Below are positions 11,791-41,716 of a stretch of 64,000 nucleotides of DNA, in pieces. Numbering within the stretch: the stretch's first letter is position 1; each line of letters begins with the position of its first letter. Under the pieces are notes generated by a model. That model worked only from the letters and a program-made list of their open reading frames with translations. It had not been told where the DNA came from and searched no databases. Origin of the DNA: Escherichia coli 042 (GTDB lineage Bacteria > Pseudomonadota > Gammaproteobacteria > Enterobacterales > Enterobacteriaceae); NCBI RefSeq assembly GCF_000027125.1, contig NC_017626.1; one strand, given 5' to 3'. The position numbers and the translations under genes are program-made.

Positions 11791-11831
11791 TGAAGCTGGT
11801 TTCAGACTGGTGACAAAGTGCCTGTGTTTAT

Positions 11832-11866
11832 GCCGGATGCGGCGATAACGCCTTATCCGGCCTACA
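11832..11866. repeat. REP (repetitive extragenic palindromic) element
   Basis: gccggatgcggcg...cgccttatccggcctaca, the characteristic REP palindrome. Confidence 0.6.
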
Positions 11867-11987
11867 AAACCAATTAAATTCAATGAATTAAAAAGTATGT
11901 TGGCCTGATACGTAGCGCAACAGGCAATTTTGCGTTTGGCATCAGACTCAACCCGGCTCCTGACAGAGCCGGTTTTGGTTTTCTGTC

Positions 11988-18096: not shown

Positions 18097-18141
18097 AAAG
18101 CAACCTCAATAAGAAAAACTGCCGCGAAGGATAGCAGGAAT

Positions 18142-18507
18142 AAAAAAAGGGAGCACTGTATTCACAGTGCTCCCGGTTCGTTTCGCAGCATTCCAGCTAC
18201 TTTTGTTGCTCCCTGCTCATCCTTGACAACTTTTCCTCTGGCCTTGCGGCCAATCGTTCATCCTGAACTATTGCTTCCTGCTCACACCACCCCGATGTGA
18301 TACTTCATCCTGAAGTGTCCCTGGCCTTCCTGGCCCACCGAATCATCCTGACCGGTTCTCATTCTCCATCCTGGAGGTGTCCTTTAACGCGTCCTGCGTC
18401 ATCCTCTTCGCTTCATCCAGAAGCCTTTCCCTGAAACACCATCCTGGTGTGTCCTTCAGAAGTGTCATCATCCTGATGTTCACTTCGTTGTCTGACTCCC
18501 TGTCGAC
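18142..18507 (-). ncRNA. csrB: CsrB small RNA (CsrA-sequestering sRNA)
   Basis: Minus strand begins GTCGACAGGGAGTCAGACAACGAAGTGAACATCAGGATG and carries at least 10 CAGGA(U/A)G-type GGA motifs; ends in hairpin gggagcactgtgaatacagtgctccc plus U-run at 18149-18174. Confidence 0.85.
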
Positions 18508-36727: not shown

Positions 36728-36933
36728 ACTTCCTGAGCCGGAACGAAAAGTTTTATCGGAATGCGTGTTCTGGTGAACTTTTGGCTTACGGTTGTGATGT
36801 TGTGTTGTTGTGTTTGCAATTGGTCTGCGATTCAGACCATGGTAGCAAAGCTACCTTTTTTCACTTCCTGTACATTTACCCTGTCTGTCCATAGTGATTA
36901 ATGTAGCACCGCCTAATTGCGGTGCTTTTTTTT
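36728..36933 (+). ncRNA. gcvB: GcvB small RNA, divergent from gcvA
   Basis: ACTTCCTGAGCCGGAACGAAAAG start, GU-rich repeats (gttgtgatgttgtgttgttgtgtttg), two hairpin/U-run terminators, the last ending in T8 at 36926-36933. Confidence 0.85.
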
Positions 36934-39017: not shown

Positions 39018-39067
39018 GCACAGAACCAGGTCGGATAAGACGTTCGCGTCGCATCCGACCTGATTGT

Positions 39068-39874
39068 TTACCCCTGACGGGCCGCTTTCGCCATCATCTT
39101 CTTCAGCGCATGAGAAACCGCAACAAAACCAAAGGTGGCGGTCACCATCGTCGCCGCGCCAAATCCAGATGCACAATCCATCCGCTTTGGCCCTTCCGCC
39201 GTAGCTTTCATTGCACAGACCGTGCCATCTGACTGCGGGTACACCAGCGCTTCGGTAGAGAACACGCAATCCACGCCGAGCTTACCTTTGCTGTTTTTCA
39301 CTACGCCAAAATCGCTTTTCAGGCGCTCGCGCAACTTCGCCGCCAGCGGGTCCTGAATCGTTTTCGCCAGATCGGTAACCTGAATCTGCGTCGGGTCAAT
39401 CTGCCCACCCGCGCCACCAGTCGTGACCAGCGGGATTTTATTGCGCCGACAATAAGCAATCAGCGCCGCTTTGGGCCGTACACTATCAATGGCATCAATC
39501 ACGTACGAATAACCCACGCTCATATACTGCGCTACGTTATCCGGCGTCACGAAATCATCCACCACCGTTACACGGCACTCCGGGTTAATCTGGCGAATAC
39601 GCTCCGCCATAACTTCCGCTTTTGCCAGCCCAACGTTATCGCGCAGGGCATGAATTTGCCGATTGGTATTGGTGACGCACACATCATCCATATCGATAAG
39701 CGTGATTGCGCCAATCCCTGTGCGCGCCAGCGCTTCCGCCGCCCAGGAACCGACACCGCCAATACCCACCACACAAATATGTGCATCGGCAAACAGTTGC
39801 AGCGCTTTTTCACCATACAGACGCGCAGTGCCGCCAAAACGCTGACGCCATGCATCACTAATTACCACAGACAT
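39068..39874 (-). CDS. tcdA: tRNA threonylcarbamoyladenosine dehydratase (E1-like)
   Basis: 268-aa ThiF/MoeB-like ORF with GxGxxG motif. Confidence 0.88.
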   Translation of the reverse strand: MSVVISDAWRQRFGGTARLYGEKALQLFADAHICVVGIGGVGSWAAEALARTGIGAITLIDMDDVCVTNTNRQIHALRDNVGLAKAEVMAERIRQINPECRVTVVDDFVTPDNVAQYMSVGYSYVIDAIDSVRPKAALIAYCRRNKIPLVTTGGAGGQIDPTQIQVTDLAKTIQDPLAAKLRERLKSDFGVVKNSKGKLGVDCVFSTEALVYPQSDGTVCAMKATAEGPKRMDCASGFGAATMVTATFGFVAVSHALKKMMAKAARQG

Positions 39875-39927
39875 AGCACCTCAGAATTAAAAAGGGCGAG
39901 GTTATCCCTCACCCTAAACGCATAAAT

Positions 39928-40025
39928 GCCTGATGCGCTACGCTTATCAGGCCTACATAACTCCTGCAATATTTTGGATTTGCATGATTTGTAGGCCGGA
40001 TAAGGCGTTCACGCCGCATCCGGCA
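39928..40025. repeat. Pair of REP elements (BIME-like) in the mltA-tcdA spacer
   Basis: gcctgatgcgctacgcttatcaggcctaca (39928-39957) and tgtaggccggataaggcgttcacgccgcatccggca (39990-40025). Confidence 0.6.
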
Positions 40026-40112
40026 TGAACAACGCGCACTTAGTCAATAATCAGGATGTGAGGTTACCCCTCACCCTGTCATATCCGTAAAAACGGCATA
40101 CAGAATATCACA

Positions 40113-41210
40113 TCAGCCGCTAAAGACGTTACCTGCGCCCGGAGCCGTTTTCAGCACCCAGACACGTCCATAGTGGTTGTACCAACCTGCGCGGTGCCCG
40201 GCTTCCGGACCGATCCCTTGATAGATATCGAAGTGTTGGCCTTTGATTGCGCCACCGACATCCAGCGCCACCATCAGACGCAGTTCATACTGACCGTTAA
40301 ATTTGCCGTTATTATCCAGCAGCGGCACTTCTGCCAGTAAGGTAGTACCTGGCGGAATAATTGAACGATCGGAGGCAACAGAAGCACGGCCAACCAGCGG
40401 TACTGCACTTGCTCCTTTCACCGGTGCAAAAGATTGCGGTTTAAAGAAAACGAAAGACGGGTTCTGTTCCAGCAGCTCGCGAACCTCGGCTTCACTGTGT
40501 GTTTCGCCCCAGTGACGAATCGCCTGCATCGACATATCTTCTTTTTTCACTTCGCCACGGTCGATCAGCACCTTACCAATGCTGCGATAGGCATGACCGT
40601 TTTTCCCTGCATAGCTGAAAAAGTTAAGCGGACTGCCATCACCAAAGTCGATATACCCACTACCCTGCACATCCATAATGAAGTTATCCATCAAGGAGTT
40701 ACTGTAAGCGAGAATGTATTTATCGCTCAATGCTCCCGCGTAGATCTCCGCACGAGACGGCAAACGACCACGTTTTGGTGGCATACGGTAAATCGGATAC
40801 TGGAACTCGCCCTGGCGGGTATGGCGTGCCTGAATTACCGGCGTGTAATAGCCTGTAAACTGCACGTTACCATAGTTGTCGGCACCTTCCATCTGCCAGG
40901 CATCAATGCCGAACTGGCGCATATTGCGGGTATCACCGCCTGCGCGCAGCCACTCTTGCACCGCGTTATAAACATTACTCTGGTTGCCATACAGACGCGG
41001 TGACGAATTACGGATATGGTTAATTTGCTCGGCAAAATCACCGGCGTTAATCGGCGCGCCAACGGCATCTGGCTGGTTCACCAGAGAGAAAGGCTGGGTA
41101 AATTTCCCGTCTTTATATTGCTGTCCGCGATCGGTTGGTTTGGAAGAGCAGGCGGCAAGCATTGCCACAACCGTGCCCATAAGAAGGTACTTTACCCAAC
41201 GTCCTTTCAT
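40113..41210 (-). CDS. mltA: Membrane-bound lytic murein transglycosylase A
   Basis: 365 aa from ATG at 41210 (MKGRWVKYLLMGTVVAMLAACSS lipoprotein signal); the ORF-track extension to 41492 reads through the tRNA genes and is an artefact. Confidence 0.9.
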   Translation of the reverse strand: MKGRWVKYLLMGTVVAMLAACSSKPTDRGQQYKDGKFTQPFSLVNQPDAVGAPINAGDFAEQINHIRNSSPRLYGNQSNVYNAVQEWLRAGGDTRNMRQFGIDAWQMEGADNYGNVQFTGYYTPVIQARHTRQGEFQYPIYRMPPKRGRLPSRAEIYAGALSDKYILAYSNSLMDNFIMDVQGSGYIDFGDGSPLNFFSYAGKNGHAYRSIGKVLIDRGEVKKEDMSMQAIRHWGETHSEAEVRELLEQNPSFVFFKPQSFAPVKGASAVPLVGRASVASDRSIIPPGTTLLAEVPLLDNNGKFNGQYELRLMVALDVGGAIKGQHFDIYQGIGPEAGHRAGWYNHYGRVWVLKTAPGAGNVFSG

Positions 41211-41377
41211 TGTTCTCTTCTTCAGGTTAAAAAATAAGGCGCAACGAAGATAACAAACCGCCGCGTTTAATGAAATGAGCAGCCTCTCCGTGACGCAAAT
41301 TTTGCACAAAAAATAGGCTTTAGTGATTTGTTTTTGTTCAAAATCATGCCAGAACCGTGATCGGGGTAAAAAAAAGG

Positions 41378-41405
41378 TTGCATGAAAACGCGAGCGGAGT
41401 ATAGT
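41378..41405 (+). promoter_or_regulatory. Sigma70 promoter of the tRNA-fMet operon (-35 TTGCAT, 16-bp spacer, -10 TATAGT, GC-rich discriminator, upstream A-tract)
   Basis: Read directly, 14-41 bp upstream of the first tRNA. Confidence 0.6.
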
Positions 41406-41418
41406 GCGCATCCACGGA

Positions 41419-41495
<77 letters not shown>

Positions 41496-41528
41496 ATTAA
41501 AATTTGATGAAGTAAAGCAGTACGGTGA

Positions 41529-41605
<77 letters not shown>

Positions 41606-41639
41606 ATCAAAATTTGATGAAGTAAAAGCAGTACGGTGA

Positions 41640-41716
<77 letters not shown>

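Follow-up and report, generated by a model that had tools for sequence, protein, structure and literature searches.

Two REP palindromes in the spacer between the mltA and tcdA genes of Escherichia coli 042 are bracketed by a pair of nearly identical short direct repeats, and the question that the locus raises is where these repeats came from: do they belong to the repetitive element that contains the REPs, or to the site at which that element now lies? An earlier note, based on the same 64-kb window (the whole stretch of 64,000 nucleotides analyzed here), had hesitated between a composite "BIME-type mosaic" and a REP insertion with a duplicated flank. Taken alone, the locus would carry little weight, since the repeat is a known one, K-12 also has it, and the presence or absence of BIME-1 has been documented. 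Its value is that of a clean instance of a seemingly general footprint that bears on how REPs and BIMEs spread, a subject that papers from both 2021 and 2026 call unresolved, and for which the mechanism of BIME dissemination is said to be still "to be elucidated" (PMC8266576).

The mltA-tcdA spacer and its two hairpins

The layout of the spacer is given in Table 1. Gene names were taken from RefSeq records that are identical, or nearly so, to the window, and the start of mltA was set from the RefSeq length of 1,098 nt; the outgroup mltA orthologues carry the Pfam MltA and 3D domains. The mechanical ORF at 40113-41492 runs past the true mltA start and into a cluster of three identical tRNA genes on the plus strand upstream of mltA (41419-41713; 61.4 bits each). 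CsrB (383.9 bits; 18139-18498) and GcvB (199 bits; 36728-36933) are also within the window. Just downstream of tcdA there is a REP-like palindrome (39029-39082) that matches Rfam naRNA4 in part, at 30.6 bits, which does not reach the gathering score. A promoter scan of positions 39600-40400 found nothing.

Table 1. Positions of genes, hairpins, and BIME-1 components in and around the mltA-tcdA spacer
Feature	Positions	Strand	Basis
tcdA coding sequence	39068..39874	-	ORF list; RefSeq annotation, 100% identical record; Pfam ThiF on homologues
tcdA ribosome-binding site, GAGG	39879-39882	-	
Hairpin copy 1, tcdA-proximal	39893..39915	-	Terminator scan; RNA fold; contains the 39898-39915 18-mer
Left outer arm of BIME-1, AAACGCATAAAT	39916..39927	+	Profile match covers model positions 13-150 of 153
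Y-type REP, GCCTGATGCGCTACGCTTATCAGGCCTAC	39928..39956	+	Sequence; inverted repeats; CTAC end towards the linker
Long linker (L motif)	39957..39990	.	Rfam ES036/CssrF at 39949-39991, minus strand
Z1-type REP, GTAGGCCGGATAAGGCGTTCACGCCGCATCCGGC	39991..40024	+	Sequence; inverted repeat; REP pattern at 39995-40024
Right outer arm of BIME-1, ATGAACAACGCGCACTTAGTCAATAATC	40025..40052	+	Common to other BIME-1 copies; inside the profile model
Hairpin copy 2, mltA-proximal, AGGATGTGAGGTTACCCCTCACCCT	40053..40077	-	Direct repeat; RNA fold; not in short alleles
Copy-number-variable unit, 162 bp (BIME-1 plus one hairpin)	39916..40077, equivalently 39898-40059	.	Allele alignment; Tandem Repeats Finder
mltA coding sequence	40113..41210	-	RefSeq annotation, identical or near-identical records; stop codon 40113-40115

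A repeat search returned GAGGTTATCCCTCACCCT (39898-39915) and GAGGTTACCCCTCACCCT (40060-40077), which are 18 nt long, differ by one mismatch, and lie 162 nt apart from start to start. When up to three mismatches were allowed, the 18-mer had only two matches in the 64 kb, counting both strands; the expectation from shuffled sequence is 0.04, and none of 100 shuffles contained two or more matches. The pair had been reported in the earlier note as a 17-mer with a single mismatch, and that pair does exist, although its first copy was placed one position off and is in fact at 39899-39915. The same note had given each copy a hairpin of its own. Folding confirmed both hairpins, but the gagg/cctc pairing proposed for them was too small, as the stems are 9 bp and 10 bp long.

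Copy 1 is located 10 nt upstream of the tcdA ribosome-binding site and comprises a 9-bp stem (AGGGCGAGG/CCTCACCCT) and a 5-nt loop, 23 nt in all. Read on the minus strand, it is AGGGUGAGG-GAUAA-CCUCGCCCU followed by UUUUUAAUU (UUUUU), and its RNA fold of -17.2 kcal/mol (z = -4.05) beats all 200 of 200 shuffles. The terminator scan found nine pairs, six of them G-C, together with the 5-nt loop and the tail TTTTAATTCT (minus strand). Judging from these features, copy 1 is a functional-looking intrinsic terminator and is predicted to be the one that should end the mltA transcript. Copy 2 contains the other 18-mer (40060-40077), and one of its arms carries a 2-nt insertion; it folds at 40052-40078 as a 10-bp stem with a 2-nt AU bulge (-14.1 kcal/mol) and is followed by no U-run. 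With its stem bulged and the U-run gone, copy 2 is a relic and not a terminator.

Between the hairpins, the two REPs were confirmed where the earlier note had placed them, and its description as a BIME-type mosaic is correct for this inner part, which is a BIME-1, with a long linker joining a Y REP to a Z1 REP. Nine other BIME-1 copies were used to build a profile, in which the full unit is 153 nt; it matches the inner 137 nt with 142 bits (E = 3e-42, nhmmer), and the match begins directly after copy 1. The two REPs are inverted with respect to each other, and the element is extragenic, 3' of mltA, and present as a single unit in the window. As single-stranded DNA, positions 39943-40004 pair as the long imperfect hairpin expected of a REPIN, and the 200-nt region has a z score of -6.22. 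The linker (~33 nt) scores 46.5 bits against Rfam ES036/CssrF, for which the gathering score is 37.6. In the BIME-1 family the linker is the region of the IHF site; this copy is degenerate there, has no exact WATCAANNNNTTR in 39957-39990, and reads AATCCAAAATATTG on the minus strand.

The left arm is truncated here; the consensus has ~12 extra bases, (T)GAGAATGATGAC, at this end. The consensus unit ends in imperfect terminal inverted repeats of 15 nt, 12 of them matching (TGAGAATGATGACAA ... TCAGATTGTTGACAA / TTGTCAACAATCTGA), and the left one is missing from the mltA-tcdA copy. At the other end, the right arm is separated from the 18-mer by a gap of 7 nt (or a 2-nt indel). Given the truncated left arm and the right-arm gap, the mltA-tcdA copy is not the cleanest example of its kind. 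The right arm recurs beside the BIME-1s of rsmS-mscK and fdhE-yiiF with 86-93% identity. We considered whether the non-REP parts of the insert are a donor-specific flank, and rejected the idea because the right arm is merely the conserved outer arm of a BIME-1 subfamily.

As an element, this is a known one, BIME-1 (RIP/RIB), of the REPIN type, which is also found at this site in K-12. Its Y and Z1 REPs, the L linker, and the extragenic position at the 3' end of genes are described in PMC3333891 and PMC1187871, and its presence or absence among isolates is mentioned in a passage of PMC1187871 that cites Bachellier et al. (1997). As copy 2 has lost its U-run and copy 1 has kept it, the 3' untranslated region of mltA would run through the relic hairpin and BIME-1 before it reaches the terminator, so that BIME-1 would become part of it, directly upstream of tcdA. 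This altered untranslated region could have an effect on mltA mRNA stability and on read-through into tcdA.

Alleles of the spacer and the ancestral state

The 701-nt spacer, used as a query, has matches in 5,425 of 5,426 complete E. coli genomes and is covered in full in at least 2,754 of them. Queries specific for the insert identified the long allele (hairpin-BIME-hairpin) in 2,830 of the 5,426 genomes (52%). Among the sampled rows with incomplete cover, one REP-only plasmid record was set aside, and all 19 others span 537-538 nt, compared to 701 nt. Four short alleles were aligned with the window and with K-12, and each of these has a single hairpin, bordered on the left by the sequence that lies to the left of copy 1 and on the right by the sequence that lies to the right of copy 2. 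Nearly all of the remaining E. coli genomes appear to have a single hairpin without a BIME, and the difference appears to be a precise 162 bp. The second reading of the earlier note, an insertion of REPs with a duplicated flank, is therefore supported by the strain comparison, in which a precise 162-bp segment is present or absent and the short allele has one 18-mer. A small hairpin on the minus strand between the mltA stop codon and copy 2 (CCGTTTTTACGG, 40085-40096) is found in both the long and the short alleles, and lies outside the duplication.

Further units occur in tandem. A query spanning one hairpin with a BIME on each side gave 100% single-piece matches in at least three genomes, which thus have two-unit alleles. 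Tandem Repeats Finder reported 2.1 copies with a 162-bp period in O157:H7 OK1, and at least 4.8 tandem 162-bp units at mltA-tcdA in Escherichia sp. MOD1-EC7003, where the array reaches the end of the contig. The copy number of the 162-bp unit can thus be used as a marker; it is 0, 1, 2 or more and divides E. coli about in half. The hairpin repeats, 18-23 bp long and 162 bp apart, now act as substrates for slippage or unequal recombination, from which these copy-number alleles result.

Since BIMEs do contain motifs other than REPs, and since the outer arms (39916-39927 and 40025-40052) recur at other BIME-1s, one may ask whether the 17- or 18-mer is simply a conserved extra-REP motif, such that 39893-40077 as a whole is the known composite element. 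We regard this as extremely unlikely. A 37-nt query centered on the hairpin matches a median of one place per genome, and at most two, in 5,425 E. coli genomes, so that the 18-mer is locus-specific and not a BIME motif. Genomes without the BIME keep one copy, Salmonella has the hairpin without BIME-1, and at the corresponding positions other BIME-1s have different hairpins, each specific to its own locus. The possibility raised in the earlier note that the 17-mer is a common BIME component can accordingly be set aside.

Salmonella enterica and a second enterobacterium (from the TcdA cluster labelled Cronobacter sakazakii) carry the homologous hairpin and a T-run only once, immediately before the tcdA ribosome-binding site, and have no second copy. 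Based on these single-copy outgroups, one hairpin is the ancestral state, and the duplication arrived with the BIME. BIME-1 is thus located at a pre-existing terminator hairpin and has a whole hairpin on each side. We conclude, with considerable confidence, that BIME-1 inserted at the mltA-tcdA terminator hairpin and left the whole 23-nt hairpin on each side, as a target duplication made at insertion. The 17-mers described originally are, in all probability, part of that target duplication and lie outside the element. The resident mltA terminator, the extent of the duplication over a whole hairpin, the tandem 162-bp units, and the footprint at many other BIME-1 loci (described below) had not been part of the earlier note.

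The outgroup spacers hold REP-like palindromes of their own, GCCCGATAACGCGATCGCTATCGGGC in one and GCCCGGCGGCGTAACGTCTGCCGGGC in the other (Salmonella L050/L051 1410-1440; L053/L054), which in both cases come after the mltA stop codon and before the lone terminator hairpin. As these palindromes are distinct, different palindromic repeats have colonized the mltA-tcdA spacer independently, and without hairpin duplication. Upstream of a tcdA whose product is 97% identical in Logan SRR18691088 (L052 1-76), there is a REP, GTAGGCCTGATAAGGCGCAGCCGCCATCAGGC, and the hairpin is absent; the contig, only 1.3 kb long, does not extend over the rest of the spacer.

In E. albertii, MOD1-EC7003, and a divergent "E. 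coli" representative, BIME-1 is present at this site with a common left junction, CCCTCACCCT followed by AAACGC, which points to one old insertion. Since the insertion seems to predate E. coli, short alleles in this species may represent precise deletions between the hairpin copies and not sites that were never occupied. We considered the C/T and T/C differences between copies as a marker of such deletions, but discarded them because the first site is homoplastic and is also polymorphic in Salmonella (wobble vs Watson-Crick pairing). In E. albertii, 13 nt of the right arm of BIME-1 are missing, and the second copy (L017 3302-3460) reads AGAGCGAGATTATTTCTCACTCT vs AGGGTGAGGTTATCCCTCACCCT, with two compensatory pair changes; its stem is kept, though it has no U-run.

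The compensatory changes in E. albertii suggest selection on structure, and both copies in the window fold. One could therefore imagine that the copies are of independent origin, arising by chance or by selection for two hairpins, for example if the arrival of the BIME was followed by selection for another terminator-like hairpin. However, 17 of the 18 bases are identical, including those of the loop, the short allele has exactly one copy, and the same pattern recurs with unrelated hairpin sequences at many loci, which leaves an independent origin with next to no probability.

Hairpin repeats at other BIME-1 loci

Species-representative genomes were scanned for a 20-mer of the right arm (ATGAACAACGCGCAC...), which gave 37 stretches, mostly from Escherichia; as the loci were gathered via this one conserved 20-mer, the sample is biased and consists mainly of draft genomes of Escherichia other than E. 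coli. The 153-nt profile served to locate every copy in the retrieved DNA and in the window. Local alignment was then applied to 22 independent loci or arrays of BIME-1, comparing the 32 nt on the left of the unit with the 32 nt on its right. Flanks from the same locus had a mean score of 11.2 (n = 22), vs 5.35 (sd 1.33, maximum 10, n = 462) for mismatched pairs. A score of 11 or more was reached by half of the loci (11/22) and by none of the 462 mismatched pairs (Mann-Whitney p = 7.5e-7). At a score of 10 or more, which we took as presence of the footprint, the numbers were 12/22 loci vs ~1% of mismatched pairs. These repeats abut the ends of the unit, with offsets of 0 to -2 (left) and +1 or +2 (right), and each such locus has a terminator-like hairpin of its own, 16-23 nt long. 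A clear flank repeat is missing at the other 10 of the 22 loci, and the footprint could therefore be less than universal.

At five loci, namely mltA-tcdA and four more, the empty allele has exactly one hairpin. Between yhaJ and yhaH, the empty allele contains AAGCACCTTTTACAAGGTGCTT once, and the occupied allele has the exact 22-nt hairpin twice, foot to foot, around BIME-1. The prohibitin-tkt and uvrB-yvcK loci likewise have one hairpin when empty and two when occupied, as does rsmS-mscK, where the comparison involves a diverged haplotype. At uvrB-yvcK, K-12 (L057) has kept BIME-1 and lost the left hairpin copy that is present in E. coli E69 (L025), through a deletion of ~24 nt that also took the first bases of the element. 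This deletion of the left copy in K-12 indicates that older insertions can lose the footprint.

Several other observations were made at these loci. At fdhE-yiiF, a CTGAT(T)GACA motif on both sides was taken up as a candidate target duplication and rejected, as it is actually the terminal inverted repeat of the element; there is no clear duplication at that locus. The window contains a second full-length BIME-1 (11802-11949, minus strand, 113 bits) between gudD and barA, the flanks of which (AACCGGCTCTGTCAGGAGCCGGGTT / AACCAGCTTCATAAAAAGCCGATT) look like a decayed hairpin duplication (local score 7); this locus is covered over at least 80% in 5,202 of 5,426 genomes. MOD1-EC7003 has massive tandem BIME-1 arrays (L034 690-1957; L033 9743-11150; L036 7459-8292; L037/L038/L039/L042). 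They include eight units of 159-160 bp, and a set of 12 units, truncated to ~115 bp, that one perfect 20-nt hairpin repeat brackets. Some of its arrays alternate hairpins between units (GGCCGTTCAGGAAGCGGCC, GCCTCCAAAAGGAGGC, GGCCGGGTTCGGCC, GCCACGATCTGTGGCG), which may be due either to hairpins that moved with the element, to repeated insertion into hairpin copies, or to misassembly of short reads. Contigs assigned to two Bacillales, Alkalicoccobacillus porphyridii (L026, 264-bp) and Bacillus coahuilensis (L028, 807-bp), match the Escherichia fdhE-yiiF spacer with its BIME-1, at ~95% to the E. coli copy (L008), and almost certainly represent contaminating Escherichia DNA.

Could the repeats have been produced by local rearrangement instead of insertion? 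A BIME-1 that arrived beside a hairpin might have been duplicated in tandem with it and one BIME then lost, in which case the repeats would be a by-product of slippage, and the polymorphism a deletion mediated by them. The 162-bp unit does amplify in tandem, and MOD1-EC7003 commonly has arrays that combine the unit with a hairpin. In Pseudomonas, tandem REPIN clusters include flanking sequence (PMC3116915). The presence of the long allele in E. albertii would also fit, given that the short alleles in E. coli may be deletions. Against this, at least three steps, with one precise outcome, would have been needed at a dozen independent loci, and the hairpin copies abut both ends of the element within 0-2 nt. 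The intermediate to be expected on this route, in which the BIME is on one side only, the hairpin is intact, and the second BIME is partial, was seen at none of the examined loci, and the duplication at yhaJ-yhaH is exact from foot to foot. We therefore consider rearrangement, which may have occurred at a single locus, to be an improbable source of the repeats at a dozen of them, and retain insertion with target duplication.

The flanking direct repeats, together with the imperfect terminal inverted repeats (12/15), would also suit a BIME-1 of the conventional miniature inverted-repeat kind, mobilized by a transposase of the DDE type whose fixed-length duplication overlaps the hairpins by chance. 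The fixed, short target-site duplication of a classical MITE was, however, not what we found: the repeats vary from 16 to 23 nt, follow the size of the local hairpin, and are far above the staggers that transposases usually make. We know of no DDE transposase that matches BIME-1. In addition, REPs go with a Y1 (HUH) enzyme (PMC2817692, PMC3333891). Mobilization of BIME-1 by a DDE enzyme is accordingly very improbable, and a duplication set by the hairpin itself remains our preferred reading.

Whether the footprint can be generalized is a separate matter. The proposition would be that intrinsic-terminator hairpins are the specific target of BIME-1 insertion and are duplicated in full, the duplication being as long as the hairpin. 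The footprint itself was observed here; that it has gone undescribed before, and that it reflects the chemistry of insertion and not later rearrangement, we would place just short of an even chance. In the literature searched, older BIME papers aside (Gilson 1991, Boccard and Prentki 1993, Bachellier 1997), we found no description of whole-hairpin duplication at BIMEs. According to published work, REPs lack transposon-like signatures.

A possible route of insertion and its relation to known systems

A duplication as long as the palindrome itself is what would be expected if each strand were cut at the equal position relative to its own hairpin. The hairpin target, whether extruded as a cruciform or folded in single-stranded DNA, would be recognized symmetrically on both strands, and each strand would be cut at the foot of the stem, so that the breaks are staggered by the length of the hairpin. 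Fill-in after joining would then duplicate the entire hairpin.

The candidate enzyme would be the REP-associated Y1 transposase (TnpA-REP/RAYT), which has been found, in vitro only, to bind REP hairpins and to cut single-stranded DNA between C and T on either side, at a distance (PMC3333891). This combination of hairpin binding and cleavage makes TnpA-REP the natural candidate. The usual model for the mobility of REPs and BIMEs is Y1 transposition of the IS200/IS605 type, which makes no target duplication (PMC3333891). The absence of flanking direct repeats that this model entails is not what is seen, since there is an 18-23-nt repeat at mltA-tcdA and the footprint is present at 12/22 loci; either the enzyme or the mechanism must therefore differ from it. 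The junctions were also checked for the C-T cleavage motif. The right end reads AATC-TGA, and many left junctions have a C directly before TGAGAATG; the T, however, belongs to the element, and the preceding base is not consistently C. No RAYT gene was found in the 64-kb window. The specific cutting geometry and the assignment to TnpA-REP are put forward tentatively, and we would rate them as somewhat more likely to be wrong than right.

If the footprint is a general signature, it would name the target of BIME-1, namely terminator hairpins, and would constrain the chemistry to staggered breaks at the stem foot on both strands. A plasmid-borne terminator trap, read out as a PCR size shift, would then serve as a simple assay. 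It would also explain why BIME-1s are found in 3' untranslated regions, where transcription units end, and how they come to be lost precisely or to grow in tandem, via the repeats that each insertion makes.

Among known systems, IS1397 inserts into the loops of REPs, and class C group II introns insert after intrinsic terminators. The likeness to BIME-1 is that a hairpin, and not a primary sequence, serves as the landmark for insertion. To our knowledge, however, these hairpin-homing elements do not duplicate the whole hairpin. Targeting of REPs by insertion sequences is among the points for which PMC3333891 cites other work. The intrinsic terminators themselves provide a second comparison, in that copy 1 resembles them in its G+C-rich stem, 5-nt loop, and U-run, whereas copy 2, with its bulge and without a U-run, does not. 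MITEs of the Correia and ERIC types are likewise small and non-coding, with terminal inverted repeats, flanking direct repeats, and a long stem-loop, but their duplications are short and of fixed length, unlike the BIME-1 footprint, which is variable and corresponds to the target hairpin (PMC3184786).

With BIME-1/RIP/RIB, the element at mltA-tcdA has in common the inverted Y and Z1 REPs, the L linker, a length of ~140 bp, the extragenic position at a 3' end, and presence or absence among isolates, and it differs in the truncated left arm and the degenerate IHF consensus. It is also like the REPINs that are associated with RAYT/TnpA-REP, since its inverted pair of REPs folds as one long hairpin and it is presumed to be a non-autonomous mobile unit. 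The difference is that single-strand transposition of the IS200/IS605 type leaves no direct repeats, whereas here a hairpin of 16-23 nt has been duplicated.
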